Under the pieces are notes generated by a model that made no database searches, was not told the DNA's origin, and saw only the letters and a program-made list of their open reading frames with translations. Shown piece after piece: positions 5,255 to 34,284 of a DNA stretch of 39,138 bases; position 1 is the first letter of the stretch; each line of letters starts with the position of its first letter. Source of the DNA: a virus; IMG/VR virus record IMGVR_UViG_3300026272_000002, positions 1 through 39,138 of that record; one strand, written 5' to 3'. The position numbers were made by a program, and so were the translations under genes.

Positions 5255-5566
5255 GTGAGCGCGCCGAAAGAAGGAAAGCGAGTGCCGGCCAAAGAGGCTG
5301 CAGCAATTCTTGGAATCGAAGAGCATCTTATCAGTCGGCTGGATGCCGGCGGGCGCTGGATCAAACGGTATAAGCTGACGCGAAAGACACACGTATATGA
5401 CGTCGATTCCCTTTATCTTTACTTAGAATCATGCCAATCGAAACCATTACAAAAGCCGGGCGCAAGCGGCTCCGCTGGACGTTCAACCGGATCATTTCGG
5501 GCCAGCGTGTCCGCCAAACCAAAGTTCTCCCTGCGGGAATATCTACCGCAGAAGCAGACGGTTTAG
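5255..5566 (+). CDS. xis: Excisionase / AlpA-like helix-turn-helix protein (putative Xis)
   Basis: The N-terminal part KRVPAKEAAAILGIEEHLISRLDAGGRWIKRYKL looks like an MerR/excisionase-type HTH. The gene sits immediately upstream of int. The reading frame overlaps the int start by 136 nt, so the real C-terminus is uncertain. Confidence 0.55.
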   Translation: MSAPKEGKRVPAKEAAAILGIEEHLISRLDAGGRWIKRYKLTRKTHVYDVDSLYLYLESCQSKPLQKPGASGSAGRSTGSFRASVSAKPKFSLREYLPQKQTV

Positions 5567-6429
5567 CGCGTGCCTGGGAAGCTGAGATTTACGCGCTGGC
5601 GACCGGCCAGCGGAAAGAGGTTGTGACGATCGGCGATTGCGTTAAGCTGCATGTCGCAGATAAATGCGCTGAATGGAAGGATGCTACCGCGCGCATCGGA
5701 ATTCTGGAAAAGTGGGCTCCCGAGTACAAAGATCAAGACGCGACTGACTTGCATGACTGGTCAAAGAAGTTTGTCGGCTATATGCGAGCGAAGCAGGATA
5801 AGCACGGTAAACCAAAGAATCCGCTTACAGACAGTTCTATCCGCAATGTTTTGGCGTACCTACGGGCAGCGATGAAATACGCATTCAAAGTAGGCAAGCT
5901 TTCTGAGGATCAGACGGCGCGCATGACGATACCGTCAGTCAATAATGAGCGCCACCACTACCCTGATCGGCGGGAGATGCTTCGGATCGCCAGGAAATGC
6001 CGAAACCGCCAGGTACGCGCCGCGATTCGGATCGCCTTCTATTCGGGCATGCGGAAGGCAGAAATATTACGTGCCAAGCGTACCAAGAAGGGATTTTTGT
6101 TGGAAGATACTAAAAACGGTGAACGGCGGATAATCCCCATCCACCCGCGCATTGCTGTTCTGGCACGCAAGATTCGCTTCACGATCGATGAGGAAAAAGT
6201 ATCTGATCAATGGGATATCGCCCGGGAGCTGGCAGGGTATCCGGATACACGATTCCATGACCTGCGACACGGCGCCGCATCAGAGATGATCAACTCAGGC
6301 GTAGACCTATACACAGTCGGCGCTGTACTCGGTCATATGTCGCCGGCATCGACTCGCCGTTATAGCCATTTGGTGACCGACCGATTAGCTGATGCTGTTT
6401 CTAAAATCGGTGGTAAAAAGGGGAAATAG
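5431..6429 (+). CDS. int: Tyrosine recombinase (phage integrase)
   Basis: C-terminal catalytic signature ...HDLRHGAASEMINSGVDLYTVGAVLGHMSPASTRRYSHL (HxxR ... H ... Y), with an upstream Arg in GMRKAEILRAKR. It is followed directly by attP. Confidence 0.92.
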   Translation: MPIETITKAGRKRLRWTFNRIISGQRVRQTKVLPAGISTAEADGLARAWEAEIYALATGQRKEVVTIGDCVKLHVADKCAEWKDATARIGILEKWAPEYKDQDATDLHDWSKKFVGYMRAKQDKHGKPKNPLTDSSIRNVLAYLRAAMKYAFKVGKLSEDQTARMTIPSVNNERHHYPDRREMLRIARKCRNRQVRAAIRIAFYSGMRKAEILRAKRTKKGFLLEDTKNGERRIIPIHPRIAVLARKIRFTIDEEKVSDQWDIARELAGYPDTRFHDLRHGAASEMINSGVDLYTVGAVLGHMSPASTRRYSHLVTDRLADAVSKIGGKKGK

Positions 6430-6461
6430 AGTGTGTGTATTTCTGCCATTCTATTGTATTC

Positions 6462-6481
6462 AACTGTATCTATTCACAGTA
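6462..6481. promoter_or_regulatory. SOS (LexA-type) box AACTGTATCTATTCACAGTA
   Basis: CTGT (6464-67), N8, ACAG (6476-79), with an AT-rich spacer and 16 of 20 matches to TACTGTATATATATACAGTA. It is non-coding and lies in the attP arm. Confidence 0.55.
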
Positions 6482-6483
6482 TT

Positions 6484-6489
6484 TATAAT
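6484..6489 (+). promoter_or_regulatory. Perfect TATAAT -10 hexamer between two SOS boxes (possible SOS-gated promoter)
   Basis: TATAAT lies 2 nt after the first SOS box. No good -35 is present (TTCAAC at 19-nt spacing), so the promoter call is tentative. Confidence 0.3.
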
Positions 6490-6527
6490 GGCTAAGTCAT
6501 TGATATTTGCCTGCAAACCCTATGCAA

Positions 6528-6547
6528 TGCTGTGTTTAATAACAGTT
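6528..6547. promoter_or_regulatory. SOS (LexA-type) box TGCTGTGTTTAATAACAGTT
   Basis: CTGT (6530-33), N8, ACAG (6542-45). It shares the CTGTGTTTA left half with the boxes at 34101 and (reverse strand) 7032. It ends 4 nt before the tRNA-derived core. Confidence 0.5.
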
Positions 6548-6551
6548 ATAT

Positions 6552-6600
6552 CGGACTCTTAATCCGTAGGTCGAGTGTTCGAGCCACTCACGCCCCACCA
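6552..6600 (+). other. attP core: 3' 49 nt of a tRNA-Lys(CUU) gene (anticodon arm to CCA), not an intact tRNA
   Basis: CGGA-CTCTTAA-TCCG anticodon arm (anticodon CTT), variable loop AGGTC, T-arm GAGTG-TTCGAGC-CACTC, and acceptor 3' strand ACGCCCC plus ACCA. No matching 5' acceptor strand or D-arm is found upstream. Confidence 0.8.
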
Positions 6601-6611
6601 AAGAATACAAA

Positions 6612-6644
6612 GGGTTCCAAGCTATTGGAGCCCTTTTTCTTTTT
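6612..6644 (+). terminator. Rho-independent terminator after the tRNA fragment (possibly bidirectional)
   Basis: Stem GGGTTCC (6612-18) pairs with GGAGCCC (6627-33) around an 8-nt loop, followed by TTTTTCTTTTT. Confidence 0.7.
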
Positions 6645-6672
6645 CAGGTCAGTGTGCATTTTTCTGACAAAC

Positions 6673-7026
6673 TCAACTTGGTTTCGGTCCATGCAGCGGC
6701 GCATCGGTAACCGGTGGCGTCTCATTCAGAATTTCAACAGCCCACTCCTGCAAAGTCGTCGCTGCATTATCGGCATCGAATGAATCGCGCTGCCAGCCAC
6801 GTACCATCATCGCCCGATCGCGCAGGCCAATGATCTGAGGTTGATAGAGCGGGAAGAGAAGATCAGCAGTCCCGACGGCCTGACTCCCCCATTCGAAGAA
6901 ATGCATGACCGGGTAGCCTTCAACGATAAAGGCCTGGATCCGCCCGCGCATGCCTACATCGGCGGCAATATCTTGCTCGCGCCGGCGCCGTCCTTTATCT
7001 CTAAGCTGGGTGACTTTTGCGTACAT
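6673..7026 (-). CDS. Hypothetical 117-aa protein; candidate SOS-regulated moron or antirepressor
   Basis: ORF on the minus strand. The track start (GTG 7047) lies inside the SOS box, and ATG 7026 lies 5 nt downstream of it. No Shine-Dalgarno sequence is present, so the mRNA may be leaderless. No family was recognised. Confidence 0.55.
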   Translation of the reverse strand: MYAKVTQLRDKGRRRREQDIAADVGMRGRIQAFIVEGYPVMHFFEWGSQAVGTADLLFPLYQPQIIGLRDRAMMVRGWQRDSFDADNAATTLQEWAVEILNETPPVTDAPLHGPKPS

Positions 7027-7031
7027 GGATT

Positions 7032-7051
7032 TACTGTATAAAAACACAGTG
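7032..7051. promoter_or_regulatory. SOS (LexA-type) box TACTGTATAAAAACACAGTG
   Basis: CTGT (7034-37), N8, ACAG (7046-49), with 16 of 20 matches to the consensus. It lies in the divergent region between the 117-aa gene and the acyltransferase and covers a possible minus-strand -10 (TATACA, 7040-7035). Confidence 0.6.
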
Positions 7052-7107
7052 TATCGTAAACGAATTCAGCCATATAAGATTGCCCGCGAATAATCACGAT
7101 AATTACA

Positions 7108-8202
7108 ATGCATAAAATCGCAAACAAAGACATTCGGCTTGACTTTCTTGATGGGCTTCGCGGATGGGGCGCTTTAAGCGTTCTGCTTTATCACACCTTC
7201 GTACAAGGGTTCCCGATCACGGAAAAGGTTTCTGTCGAACTGTACCGATTTTTCTTATTCAATGGCCCCCTAGCCGTCTGGATATTTTTTATCGTTTCTG
7301 GATTTTCCCTATCAATTAAATATTTCCAGTTTGGAGATATTGCATCGCTACGAAGAATCGCTTTGGGTCGCTATATCCGCCTGATGATTCCGATCCTCGC
7401 GGTGGGCATTATTGTTTTCATTCTATTCAAGCTCTCGATAATTCCCGCGGCATCTGAACGCCCTTCAGCGTTTCAAGCGTTCCTTGCCGTGCCGCCGACC
7501 CTGCATGATGCTTTGAGGTTTGGCCTGTTCGACGTATTTTTCAAGTACGACGCGAGCAAATCATTATCGCCTCCGCTGTGGACGATGGCCTATGAACTAT
7601 GGGGTTCAGCAATGGTCATCGGAACGTTATTTGTCGCTGGAAAATCACCGTATAGATTTGCACTCTATTTGGCAATCGGCGTATTGGCCCTGCTCGTTCA
7701 TGTGTTCTATATCAACTTCATAATAGGGATTGTGTTTGCTGACGTCTACTCTGGCGGCCTCAGGCACAGATATGCCAACCTATGGAAATATCTCCCCGGC
7801 GCGGCCCTTGTCGCCGGCCTAATTGCATCAGCATTCCTCAGAAGAGAATCGTCAGATTTTCATTTTCTTGCCAGCGCTGCGTTAATCTCATTAGGCGTTA
7901 TTTTTGATAAACATGCCGCGCGCGCCATATCGTCCAAGTTGAGCAGGTTTCTTGGGCGCATTTCCTTCCCGCTATACCTCATCCATTCCACGGTATTCTT
8001 TTCATACTCACTTTGGGTATTTGGGATATGGGGAAGCACGGCAGAGAGTTCATTTGAGGTGAAAATCTTGCTGAATATTTCCACTGTTTTAGTGGCAATC
8101 CTTGCCGCCATCGCATTGACACCAGCGGACACTTTCAGTGTCTGGCTATCGAAAAAATTCGCCGCTGTGTTTGTGCGAAAGCCGTCCCCCGATCAGCGCT
8201 AA
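7108..8202 (+). CDS. Acyltransferase family 3 integral membrane protein (O-antigen/LPS acetylase-like lysogenic conversion gene)
   Basis: N-terminal signature RLDFLDGLRGWGALSVLLYHTF followed by about ten hydrophobic segments. The region is AT-richer than the rest of the genome, and the gene is convergent with the late operon. Confidence 0.88.
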   Translation: MHKIANKDIRLDFLDGLRGWGALSVLLYHTFVQGFPITEKVSVELYRFFLFNGPLAVWIFFIVSGFSLSIKYFQFGDIASLRRIALGRYIRLMIPILAVGIIVFILFKLSIIPAASERPSAFQAFLAVPPTLHDALRFGLFDVFFKYDASKSLSPPLWTMAYELWGSAMVIGTLFVAGKSPYRFALYLAIGVLALLVHVFYINFIIGIVFADVYSGGLRHRYANLWKYLPGAALVAGLIASAFLRRESSDFHFLASAALISLGVIFDKHAARAISSKLSRFLGRISFPLYLIHSTVFFSYSLWVFGIWGSTAESSFEVKILLNISTVLVAILAAIALTPADTFSVWLSKKFAAVFVRKPSPDQR

Positions 8203-28885: not shown

Positions 28886-29188
28886 TTACACTACTATCCA
28901 GTCCTCGGCGAGAACATCATTGACGCCTGGTACCCAAGTGCTGACCGTGTTGTCCACGTTCTTGATCGCCAGATACGCGTTGTAAGGCACCAGTGAGCCT
29001 TCGCCGAAGTGGGACTTGGCCGCACCCGTCTGCACCGGGTAGGATGCTGCTGGAACGTGGTAGACAAACATGCCTTTGCCATTCCAGCCTGCACGTGCGA
29101 GTTTCACACCGGCTTTTAGCCACGCCAATGCAAAACTGAAATCGCCTTTTACATTTCCGCTTTCATTACTTTGGGCTGGATCATTCAT
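28886..29188 (-). CDS. DUF2829-family protein (Tad2-like candidate anti-Thoeris sponge)
   Basis: FSFALAWLKAGVKLARAGWNGKGMFVY ... YLAIK ... WVPGVNDVLAEDWIVV matches the characteristic DUF2829 pattern (G-x-K-x-x-R-x-G-W-N-G-K-G-M ... D-x-L-A-x-D-W). Confidence 0.75.
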   Translation of the reverse strand: MNDPAQSNESGNVKGDFSFALAWLKAGVKLARAGWNGKGMFVYHVPAASYPVQTGAAKSHFGEGSLVPYNAYLAIKNVDNTVSTWVPGVNDVLAEDWIVV

Positions 29189-32506: not shown

Positions 32507-32571
32507 GCGAACCACGCAATCAGAAATAGAATTACGCCAGCCAGGAGGAAGCAAAGAGGGAGGGTATCCAT
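32503..32571 (-). CDS. Micro-ORF, 22-aa hydrophobic peptide (MDTLPLCFLLAGVILFLIAWFA)
   Basis: Hand translated. It is coupled on both sides, with a TGATG overlap to the CII-like stop and an ATGA overlap to the methyltransferase start. Confidence 0.5.
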   Translation of the reverse strand: MDTLPLCFLLAGVILFLIAWFA

Positions 32572-33104
32572 CACGCTGGCTCCTTGCGCATGATTCGCTT
32601 GAGAAGCTTTCCAGAGTCAGACTTGGCGCGAACGCGCAGACGATGAAGCCAATCGTGAATCGTGGGCAGAAGCGCACGAATCTTCGGCTCGATTTCCTGC
32701 ATTTCGCTTTCGGATAGATGCCCGTCAATCAGTGCGTCGGTGGATGCAGACACTGCGGCACCAAATTGCGACATCGCACGGAACACGACGCGCTGGATTT
32801 CTTCCTCGCTGATGTCGCCGCCGTCCGCGTCTGGAATTGGAATGCAAACAAGGCCCAAGCGGTACGCCATCGCATGCAAAGCCGAGAGCGCGTCAGGAAC
32901 GCCAGAACTGTTGCACAGCTCCATGACGACGGCGGCATCCTCAAAGCTGGAATTATTTGCCCTCTCCATCGGCGACAGCTTTTTATAAAGCAGCTTTGGA
33001 TTCATCTCCATGCGATGTGCAAGTGCAGGAATACCGCCTGGATAAGCGCGCGCCGCGTTGTACAGGCAGTCGTGCTGGTCGGTGTCGCCGTATTTGTAGG
33101 TCAT
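32571..33104 (-). CDS. CII-like early regulatory protein (Phage_CP76-type; 177 aa)
   Basis: It is the second gene after cro. ATG 33104 follows AAAGGA. The N-terminal part YNAARAYPGGIPALAHRMEMNPKLLYKKLSP resembles CII/CP76-family regulators (recalled from memory). Confidence 0.55.
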   Translation of the reverse strand: MTYKYGDTDQHDCLYNAARAYPGGIPALAHRMEMNPKLLYKKLSPMERANNSSFEDAAVVMELCNSSGVPDALSALHAMAYRLGLVCIPIPDADGGDISEEEIQRVVFRAMSQFGAAVSASTDALIDGHLSESEMQEIEPKIRALLPTIHDWLHRLRVRAKSDSGKLLKRIMRKEPA

Positions 33105-33188
33105 GGGGAAAATCCTTTTTTTATTCCTGATGCGCAATTGATGCAGTGCGGCTAAAGTTCAGTCATGGAAACTCATGACACGACAAAA

Positions 33189-33392
33189 TTAAGCGACAGA
33201 GCGTCGGCGCTTCGTACTCTTATGAAGTGCGACCAGCTTCTGACCAAGTTCAAAATTGGGAGACGTCGTGACACCTCGCGCCAATTCGCTAATAGTCGAT
33301 TGACCGCAGCCGCAATACTCAGCAACAGCAACCTGAGTTTTCCCGGCCTCGAAGATCTCGGAAAGAAGTTTTGTCCAGTTCATGATCCACAT
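33189..33392 (-). CDS. Cro-like HTH regulator (64-67 aa)
   Basis: HTH motif KTQVAVAEYCGCGQSTISELARG. It is divergent from the CI-like gene. The start is either ATG 33392 or ATG 33383, and the latter would fit a nearly leaderless transcript. Confidence 0.75.
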   Translation of the reverse strand: MWIMNWTKLLSEIFEAGKTQVAVAEYCGCGQSTISELARGVTTSPNFELGQKLVALHKSTKRRRSVA

Positions 33393-33419
33393 TATTATCG
33401 GTCACCCGATATTAGTCAA
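33393..33419 (-). promoter_or_regulatory. Early lytic promoter (PR-like): TTGACT ... GATAAT/TAATAA
   Basis: The minus strand reads CGCTTGACTaatatcgggtgaccGATAATaATG. The -35 context is identical to that of the promoter at 34256. The spacing to the best -10 is short (14 nt), so the exact hexamers are uncertain. Confidence 0.4.
33396..33411. promoter_or_regulatory. Operator, perfect palindrome TATCGG-tcac-CCGATA
   Basis: 6-4-6 inverted repeat inside the PR-like promoter, with the same half-sites as the site at 34267-34282. Confidence 0.65.
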
Positions 33420-33433
33420 GCGGAATACCGTTT
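33418..33433. promoter_or_regulatory. Operator variant AAGCGG-aata-CCGTTT (core CGGAATACCG)
   Basis: It shares the CGG-N4-CCG core and abuts the -35 hexamer in the same way as the site at 34242-34257. Confidence 0.5.
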
Positions 33434-33457
33434 AAGATTATCGGTAGACTGCAAACC

Positions 33458-33880
33458 ATGAATACGAAAGGTCGATCAGCGTTTGGATTGCGCTTGGTAC
33501 AGGCAAGAAAACACGCCAAACTCACGCAAGAAGTTGCGGCAAAGCGCGCAGGAATGGCGCAGTCAACGCTTGGGGAATTGGAAATGGAAGGTCAGGGTTC
33601 GACTTTCACTGCTCAGTTGGCAGAGATTTATTCTGTGAACCCCAATTGGCTTGCAACTGGGAGAGGCGAGATGCTTGGAAAGGATGTTGAGGCTGCTCCT
33701 CCCAGAGTGGCTACAGTCCTTCCCATACCGGCACCTGAGAATCAAGAACTCAATGACGCCATCAGGCTTCTTGAGCTATTCTCCCAGGCATCGGCTAACG
33801 GCAAATCATTTATTCTTACGGCGGCCATCAATGCTGAAAAGGCTTCCGGAAGAAAGCGCAGCACCAGTACCCGCGACTAG
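33458..33880 (+). CDS. CI-like repressor, XRE-family HTH, 140 aa, without a peptidase S24 domain
   Basis: HTH motif LTQEVAAKRAGMAQSTLGELE. The short C-terminal region has no Ala-Gly/Ser-Lys autocleavage module. The gene is divergent from cro-like. Confidence 0.8.
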   Translation: MNTKGRSAFGLRLVQARKHAKLTQEVAAKRAGMAQSTLGELEMEGQGSTFTAQLAEIYSVNPNWLATGRGEMLGKDVEAAPPRVATVLPIPAPENQELNDAIRLLELFSQASANGKSFILTAAINAEKASGRKRSTSTRD

Positions 33881-34009
33881 CTTGAGAGGCGCACGATATT
33901 CATGATGGTGTGCCGCCCTGTCCTTAGCCAGCATCAGCAGCATATTCCTATCTGATGCCGACATCCCCCTGAAAGCTGTAATAAGTTCGCTTTCTTGTCT
34001 CTTCTGCAT
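33806..34009 (-). CDS. Small ORF (67 codons) convergent with and overlapping the repressor gene
   Basis: Strong RBS GGGGAGGAAG 5 nt before ATG 34009. Its last 75 nt are antisense to the 3' end of the repressor gene. An SOS box lies 92 nt upstream. Confidence 0.5.
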   Translation of the reverse strand: MQKRQESELITAFRGMSASDRNMLLMLAKDRAAHHHEYRAPLKLVAGTGAALSSGSLFSIDGRRKNK

Positions 34010-34100: not shown

Positions 34101-34120
34101 TACTGTGTTTACGTACAGTC
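34101..34120. promoter_or_regulatory. SOS (LexA-type) box TACTGTGTTTACGTACAGTC
   Basis: CTGT (34103-06), N8, ACAG (34115-18). It lies in the non-coding immunity region and overlaps a possible plus-strand promoter, TTTACG (34108-13)-16 nt-TAAAAT (34130-35). Confidence 0.55.
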
Positions 34121-34241: not shown

Positions 34242-34257
34242 TATCGGAATACCGCTT
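34242..34257. promoter_or_regulatory. Operator variant TATCGG-aata-CCGCTT
   Basis: CGGAATACCG core identical to 33421-33430. It abuts the -35 hexamer. Confidence 0.5.
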
Positions 34258-34284
34258 GACTTCATTTATCGGTTGTCCGATACT
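34256..34284 (+). promoter_or_regulatory. Early promoter of the recombination/integration operon (PL-like): TTGACT-17 nt-GATACT
   Basis: Hexamers at 34256-61 and 34279-84 with a 17-nt spacer. An operator palindrome fills the spacer and the -10. Confidence 0.6.
34267..34282. promoter_or_regulatory. Operator, perfect palindrome TATCGG-ttgt-CCGATA
   Basis: Same half-sites as 33396-33411. It overlaps the -10. Confidence 0.65.

Follow-up and report, generated by a model that had tools for sequence, protein, structure and literature searches.

The sequence analyzed here is IMG/VR record IMGVR_UViG_3300026272_000002, a stretch of 39,138 nt (the window) that represents a temperate phage in its unintegrated form, i.e., with a phage attachment site (attP). 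On the minus strand beside attP lies an open reading frame of 117 amino acids (ORF117, 6673–7026), and a LexA box (7032–7051) stands immediately ahead of its start codon. The reading that we favor, with a probability of roughly 60%, is that this box is a genuine operator of the host LexA and that ORF117 is SOS-induced damage-response cargo in or near the SRAP pathway, probably not the switch for prophage induction. SRAP (YedK/HMCES-type) proteins shield abasic sites. A role as an accessory in the SRAP pathway is considered most likely because the ORF117 family is marked by a LexA box at the start codon and by an adjacent SRAP gene. LexA-repressed prophage genes are well known and a box alone is ordinary; what is new is an unannotated protein family without a recognizable fold, a LexA operator fused to the start codon, and a repeated pairing with SRAP, together with an attP arm in which LexA boxes are embedded.

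The predicted LexA operator at the start of ORF117

The box at 7032–7051 (TACTGTATAAAAACACAGTG) agrees with the Escherichia coli LexA consensus (TACTGTATATATATACAGTA) at 16 of 20 positions by direct count and, on the minus strand, ends 5 nt ahead of the ATG at 7026–7024, just as a first-pass annotation made from the letters alone had described it. The window contains four exact copies of the core CTGT-N8-ACAG, the SOS box of Betaproteobacteria (PMC6595937), located at 6464, 6530, 7034, and 34103. From dinucleotide shuffles, 0.45 ± 0.67 such sites were expected, and none of 100 shuffles reached four. The window was also scored with a 20-nt LexA weight matrix derived from 21 E. coli sites, the absolute scores of which serve as a guide. 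The four boxes received 24.0, 19.9, 19.1, and 18.9 bits, the box of ORF117 being the top site; the fifth-ranked site of the window reached 10.6 bits, and the maximum over 200 dinucleotide shuffles was 17.7 bits. All four boxes are intergenic: the integrase gene (int) ends at 6429, ORF117 spans 6673–7026, and an acyltransferase gene starts at 7108; around the fourth box, the small gene ORF67 starts at 34009 and the following plus-strand gene at approximately 34342. Since the next-best site scores only 10.6 bits, there are no comparable LexA matches in coding regions, and the earlier count by eye of four sites, all of them in noncoding DNA, is borne out by the motif scan.

The nearest genomic relative of ORF117 is 94% identical and lies at a prophage end in Herbaspirillum rhizosphaerae (Betaproteobacteria, Oxalobacteraceae). 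This locus is L007, where L-numbers label the homologous or related loci and contigs compared with the window. Judged from this relative, the host clade of the phage is the Betaproteobacteria.

The spacing between box and gene is conserved across homologous loci. Close homologs of ORF117 are rare (nine by a word-indexed search), and every one with readable DNA has a box that ends 5–6 nt upstream of the ATG. Among 15 distinct loci, 12 have a LexA box that either ends 5–6 nt ahead of the start codon or overlaps it (gap of +5/+6 or −10). The former arrangement is seen in the window and in L001, L002/L003, L004, L005 (with a CTGG variant), L006, L007, L030, L033, and L034, and it extends to distant members of 25–33% identity, where L030 and the Thauera plasmids pTX1 and C4PIVTHp have a gap of 5 nt between box and ATG. 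In the locus alignment (A4), the CTGT and ACAG blocks form the conserved columns and the upstream flanks are diverged. Furthermore, in 13 of the 14 homologous loci scored, no LexA-like site anywhere in the locus outscores the one at the gene start. In L008/L009, the box runs over the start codon (TGCTGTATAT-ATG-TAC-AG-TC; L008 5991–6010), as it does in L029 (TACTGTATGA-ATG-TAC-AG-TA; 480–499), both being loci of only 25–30% protein identity. Because the box contains the start codon in these loci, the N-terminal Met-Tyr-Ser codons of the family double as the right operator half-site. A CTGG-N8-CCAG box was found in L012, 10 nt ahead of the likely true ATG. On these comparisons, the box at 7032–7051 is read as a real, strong, and nonrandom LexA-type operator at the start of ORF117.

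The longest open reading frame at the ORF117 locus has 124 amino acids and begins at a GTG within the box; the start was placed at the ATG at 7026 by family alignments, in which an N-terminal MY is conserved. The 5-nt gap between box and ATG reads 'aatcc' and contains no Shine-Dalgarno sequence. As no Shine-Dalgarno sequence fits the 5–6-nt gap, the ORF117 mRNA is probably leaderless. On the minus strand, the box overlaps the candidate −10 elements TATACA/TACAGT; by reading, the promoter hexamers of the window are TTTACG-16-TACAGT, with 8 of 12 positions matched and TACAGT ending 6 nt ahead of the ATG. In the distant locus L030, TTGACA-17-TATACA ends 8 nt ahead of the ATG, which places the transcription start at about the ATG. 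The simplest reading is that the −10 region is located within the operator and that the mRNA is leaderless or nearly so, which is plausible and agrees with the first-pass annotation.

The ORF117 family and its SRAP neighbors

A profile search of 1.84 billion representatives recovered approximately 81 family members at E ≤ 1e−3. Neither ORF117 nor the family members matched Pfam, PHROGs, NCBIfam, PADLOC, or the PDB sequence profiles. By these searches, ORF117 is the founding member of a previously undescribed family of predicted proteins of ~100–120 amino acids, which is distributed among prophages and plasmids of Betaproteobacteria and relatives. A tblastn search of plasmids with a distant member (P0016) gave no hit. 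The structure of ORF117 was predicted with AlphaFold2, first from a 7-sequence alignment (predicted local distance difference test [pLDDT] 80.1, predicted template modeling score [pTM] 0.71) and also from a 46-sequence alignment (pLDDT 91.6, pTM 0.80). The modeled fold is all-beta, with six or seven long beta-strands; its only helix is short and spans residues 17–22. When the two models were compared with the PDB and BFVD by Foldseek, nothing was found at E < 1e−3; the top match, the Ran-binding (PH-like) domain of RanBP3 (template modeling score 0.45, E = 0.08), was not counted.

An SRAP gene (PF02586) is found beside or near the small gene in eight homologous loci. It lies directly downstream of the small gene in L001, L002/L003, L004, and L012 (in L004 it was identified by reading the translation, which resembles the L001 SRAP), is convergent with it in L011, and is two genes away in L008/L009. 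In the two Thauera plasmids, the SRAP gene is divergent and shares the box-containing intergenic region with the small gene; RefSeq annotates the SRAP and labels the small gene 'hypothetical protein.' The backbones that carry these genes vary and include distinct phage lysis cassettes, a plasmid context with KorA, and the conjugative plasmid pTX1. In the window, the stop of ORF117 (6673) and a terminator (6636) are just 36 nt apart, and there is no SRAP gene. As eight homologous loci have the SRAP neighbor and the window does not, the window contains a reduced version of the proposed SRAP-associated SOS cargo cassette.

Related attP regions carry LexA boxes ahead of other genes. In L015 (4268–5023), whose integrase is 71% identical to that of the window, a LexA box on the far side of attP is predicted to drive SRAP alone, and in L014 (4279–5333), the equivalent box precedes two small open reading frames and an ATP-dependent DNA ligase gene (PF01068). 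We know of no cofactor described so far for a bacterial SRAP/HMCES protein. SRAP genes have been described in LexA-linked contexts and in proteobacterial prophages, and the passages of that work found by a term search do not describe a small partner family (Aravind et al. 2013, PMC3765255). Like the SRAP (YedK/YoqW/HMCES) neighborhoods, the ORF117 homologs stand beside SRAP under a LexA box, and the window differs from them in having no SRAP.

The favored reading would work as follows. In an undamaged lysogen, host LexA would occupy the core promoter and transcription start and keep ORF117 off. Upon DNA damage, RecA-stimulated self-cleavage of LexA would release a probably leaderless ORF117 mRNA, and the protein may then act as a DNA damage-response accessory in the SRAP pathway, as the gene linkage suggests. 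To the phage, ORF117 would be SOS-induced cargo, placed at the prophage end nearest attP. In the window phage and the Herbaspirillum prophage, SRAP is absent and the small gene stands by itself.

Several points weigh against this reading. LexA binding and transcription are argued from sequence, the operators being predicted, and the matrix used for scoring was derived from E. coli sites. The box is missing from L010 and lies 160 nt upstream of the gene in L011. The hexamers TTTACG-16-TACAGT are weak and were not reported by the promoter scan. SRAP is absent not just from the window, as L007, L010, and L030 have none either, and the functional link to SRAP is drawn from gene neighborhood alone. 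Finally, there is precedent for LexA-controlled antirepressor genes at a distance from the immunity region and beside SOS accessory genes, e.g., dinI in Gifsy phages (PMC3121763), so that the position and linkage of ORF117 are compatible with an antirepressor role.

The induction switch and rival roles of ORF117

The repressor gene cI (33458–33880, plus strand) encodes 140 amino acids that match only the helix-turn-helix (HTH) families HTH_19, HTH_31, and HTH_3. The S24 peptidase domain is absent, as had been stated from the sequence alone. The repressor is thus read as non-cleavable, and SOS induction by the cleavage route therefore needs another input. A cro-like HTH gene (33189–33383, minus strand) is divergent from cI, and a homolog of CII (CP76; 32571–33137) is next after it. 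By reading, putative cI operators TATCGG-N4-CCGATA were noted on both sides of cI (33400–33454 and 34242–34282), where they overlap promoter-like sites at 33419–33391 (minus strand) and 34256–34284 (plus strand) in a layout resembling the lambda OR/OL.

The role of induction trigger could instead belong to ORF67 (33806–34009, minus strand), a predicted protein of 67 amino acids whose gene has a strong ribosome-binding site (GGAGG) and runs convergently with cI, the final 75 nt of which it overlaps. The fourth LexA box (34101–34120, 19.1 bits) lies 91 nt upstream of ORF67. A single homolog, 72% identical, was found in L031 (1380–1707), where the cI/cro/CII layout and the box are the same. A 68-nt block that runs from a TTGATT element through the box toward ORF67 is 94% identical between the window and L031, and the far side of the box is diverged. 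Between the two genes, substitutions in the 43 codons that do not overlap cI are distributed 8/7/18 over the three codon positions, a third-position bias of the kind expected for a coding sequence. Upon loss of LexA, a transcript that encodes ORF67 would run antisense into the 3′ end of cI; ORF67 could act as a small antirepressor, through convergent transcription or antisense interference, or in both ways. Against such a role, the only homolog comes from a close relative, a clear minus-strand −10 is not identifiable, and no family or structure match was obtained; moreover, the best consensus promoter over the box faces the opposite way (TTTACG-16-TAAAAT), though it is degraded in L031. Mimicry of the C-terminal segment of cI by ORF67 was considered and rejected, as BLASTP gave no alignment between them, and a peptide-pattern search of IMG/VR returned no relatives of cI or ORF67. 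We regard the triggering of SOS induction by ORF67 behind the box at 34101–34120 as a tentative proposal, at less than even odds; it competes with ORF117 for the switch, and it leaves the function of ORF117 itself untouched. Judged from these sequence features, ORF67 is nevertheless the better and more specific candidate for the induction switch.

Alternatively, ORF117 may itself be a LexA-repressed antirepressor that inactivates the S24-less cI, as do Tum of coliphage 186 or GfoA/GfhA of the Gifsy phages; AntC of N15 is a further LexA-controlled antirepressor. Coliphage 186 too has a non-cleavable CI and a CP76-type CII, and its LexA site overlaps the −10 of the dedicated promoter p95 of tum (U32222: LexA 29044–29063, −10 29044–29049), comparable to the strong box over the start of ORF117. 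The known antirepressor genes sit outside the immunity region (PMC3121763), and a PHROG scan of the other early genes of the window turned up no annotated antirepressor. The protein itself does not resemble Tum, the sole antirepressor compared directly: BLASTP gave E = 1.4 and hhalign a probability of 0.5%. The C-terminal domain of Tum is DinI-like, and similarity of ORF117 to DinI is likewise not significant. Unlike Tum, ORF117 is predicted to be all-beta and to be expressed without a leader or Shine-Dalgarno sequence, and it belongs to an SRAP-linked family with members on plasmids as well. The dinI-antirepressor operons of Gifsy phages share with the present case LexA control, a location outside the immunity region, the combination of an SOS accessory gene with a small protein, and repressors that are not cleaved (Lemire et al. 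2011, PMC3121763). They differ in that the neighbor here is SRAP and not DinI, ORF117 has no evident link to the repressor, and the window copy has no partner. The occurrence of the family on plasmids and in unrelated prophages, mostly with SRAP, is better explained by portable cargo, and a second gene with a LexA box, ORF67, sits within the immunity region and is conserved together with cI in L031. An antirepressor function of ORF117 is therefore unlikely. Of the two roles offered at first pass, the SOS-induced moron fits best, and the antirepressor found no specific support in the unrelated backbones, the Thauera plasmids, or the SRAP neighbor.

A function of ORF117 as a modulator of the SOS response, acting on RecA filaments or on LexA, is similarly improbable. 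Mobile elements carry genes of the DinI, PsiB, RecX, and GIL01 gp7 types, which tune the SOS response. A small single-domain protein whose gene is predicted to be SOS-controlled, and which is found on plasmids and prophages alike, would suit such a role, and family members without SRAP exist (the window, L007, L010, and L030). ORF117 has no likeness in sequence or fold to the known modulators, and the recurring SRAP neighbor suggests lesion processing. With DinI (PF06183), it shares a small size, predicted SOS induction, and a superficial '..LQE.W' motif, which in DinI sits in a helix. The similarity to the C-terminal helix of DinI that had been suggested from the sequence did not survive: BLASTP against a DinI sequence gave E = 7.3, there was no match to PF06183 or any other Pfam family, and the segment TLQEWAVEIL forms a confident beta-strand in the model (block pLDDT ~98) instead of a helix.

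It is very unlikely that the box is a chance palindrome or mainly a regulator of the acyltransferase (7108–8202), even though it lies within the 81-nt divergent intergenic region and a −10-like TATAAG (7073–7078) would put a −35 at about 7050: the box is far above the chance expectation, the 5–6-nt spacing to the ATG of the ORF117 family is kept in loci without an acyltransferase, and the only plus-strand promoter found by the scan (7080–7109) does not overlap the box and would begin transcription past the acyltransferase ATG. Most homologous loci lack the acyltransferase, so that the box does not serve primarily as an acyltransferase operator, and the earlier suggestion that it could equally serve both genes was not upheld. 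The acyltransferase gene (plus strand) encodes an O-acetyltransferase moron (Acyl_transf_3) that is inserted between ORF117 and the lysis cassette, in the orientation opposite to theirs, and is missing from the otherwise similar Herbaspirillum prophage end. From 8199 upward, the holin, endolysin, and other genes all lie on the minus strand in a run that extends up to the cro-like and CII (CP76) genes. In GenBank phages, neither megablast of the region nor tblastn with ORF117 found anything, and the whole window yielded no RNA family at Rfam gathering thresholds.

LexA boxes in the attP arm

The remaining two LexA boxes lie in attP, on the P side of its core. The core (6552–6600, plus strand) corresponds to the 3′ portion of tRNA-Lys(CUU), which extends from the anticodon stem through CCA, and matches a complete tRNA-Lys(ctt) gene adjoining the L007 prophage; ARAGORN found no complete tRNA in the window. 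Arm-type sites for the integrase (Int) are present on both sides of the core, at 6429–6447 on the P side (GAGTGTGTGTATTTCTGCC; family consensus GGGTGTGGGTTTTTCTGCC) and at 6650–6668 on the P′ side (CAGTGTGCATTTTTCTGAC), both on the plus strand. The attP next to ORF117 that had been assumed at first pass is thus identified by its tRNA-matching core and its flanking arm-type repeats. A stem-loop with a T-run at 6609–6636 (plus strand), located at the 3′ end of ORF117, is the predicted terminator of the tRNA reconstituted on integration; L001 and L007 have this element after the tRNA as well. The tyrosine integrase gene occupies 5431–6429 on the plus strand. An open reading frame at 5255–5566, which extends 136 nt past the annotated start of int and includes ...KEAAAILGIEEHLISRL..., was noted by eye as a candidate excisionase; no family match was found for it at E ≤ 0.01.

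Box 1 (6462–6481, AACTGTATCTATTCACAGTA) and box 2 (6528–6547, TGCTGTGTTTAATAACAGTT) are ~66–67 bp apart from center to center, and the tRNA-homologous core begins 4 nt beyond box 2. Between them, a minus-strand site (6493–6505, TATCAATGACTTA = WATCAANNNNTTR) matches the consensus of integration host factor (IHF). TTGAT occurs at an equal distance from box 2 in L014 and L015, and of the related modules only about half have the IHF-like element. The order of elements, as in a lambda-type attP with its IHF, Xis, and Fis sites, is arm-type site, accessory sites, and core.

This arrangement recurs as a module in at least nine other viral contigs, in which an Int arm site (GGTGTGnnTTTTTCTGCC), box 1, 46–52 nt, box 2, and a partial tRNA follow in conserved order. 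The census is a lower bound. A scan of the collection for two boxes 46–54 nt apart, filtered for an adjacent tRNA T-loop, recovered L014/L016, L015, and L024/L025 and at least six independent additions (L035, L050, L066, L086, L129, and L136). A second arm site beyond the partial tRNA is present where read, in the window (6429–6668), L014 (3990–4260), L015 (3990–4260), and L024 (4030–4260). In L014/L016 and L015, the module is next to a tRNA-Leu(UAA) fragment, and the cores of the modules, as judged by reading the anticodon loops, derive from tRNA-Leu(UAA), tRNA-Leu(CAA), a tRNA with a Met-like CAU anticodon, and tRNA-Sec, i.e., from at least five types together with tRNA-Lys. Both orientations with respect to int occur, L024/L025 and L086 being the inverted cases. 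Extra strong LexA-like boxes were noted ~68–80 nt from box 1 in L136 (5210–5229) and L050 (281–300), thus the number of boxes per arm varies.

In an alignment of ten of these sequences, CTGT and ACAG are invariant in both boxes, and no −10 or −35 element is conserved beside the boxes in either direction. A function of the boxes as promoter operators was considered in the window, where TATAAT follows box 1 and TTGATA-17-TGCAAT precedes box 2, and was rejected, since neither −10 is kept in L014, L015, L024, or the other modules; the TTGAT of TTGATA fits the IHF consensus instead of a promoter element. A role antisense to int was likewise discarded because in L024/L025 and L086 the entire module faces the other way with respect to int. 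The TATAAT directly past box 1 (6484–6489) is perfect and points toward the tRNA fragment; it is not conserved in the relatives but could still give an SOS-controlled transcript across attP in the window phage.

Given the invariant CTGT and ACAG and no conserved promoter, the two boxes look like parts of the recombination arm and not like promoter operators. It is possible, if on balance doubtful, that LexA is a structural or gating part of attP itself and that, in parallel, ORF117 is a new SOS-regulated partner of SRAP. Until it is removed upon DNA damage, bound LexA may block excisive recombination or shape it, which would tie prophage excision to the SOS response on the DNA itself, independent of transcription. 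LexA is known to couple the recombination of mobile elements to the SOS response through the promoters of recombinases or their activators, e.g., integron intI1 and SGI1 sgaDC (PMC9927553). In contrast to such promoter control, the two boxes of the window lie inside the arm, between the arm-type site and the core, and full-text literature searches returned no report of an attP arm with LexA sites in it.

As a conserved neighbor of SRAP that is predicted to be co-regulated in the SOS response, the ORF117 family provides a direct experimental lead in the active SRAP/HMCES field. ORF67, a small LexA-box gene convergent with cI, is a candidate switch in a phage whose repressor is non-cleavable. 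With LexA boxes in a conserved attP arm that is associated with at least five tRNA types, LexA may control site-specific recombination directly.

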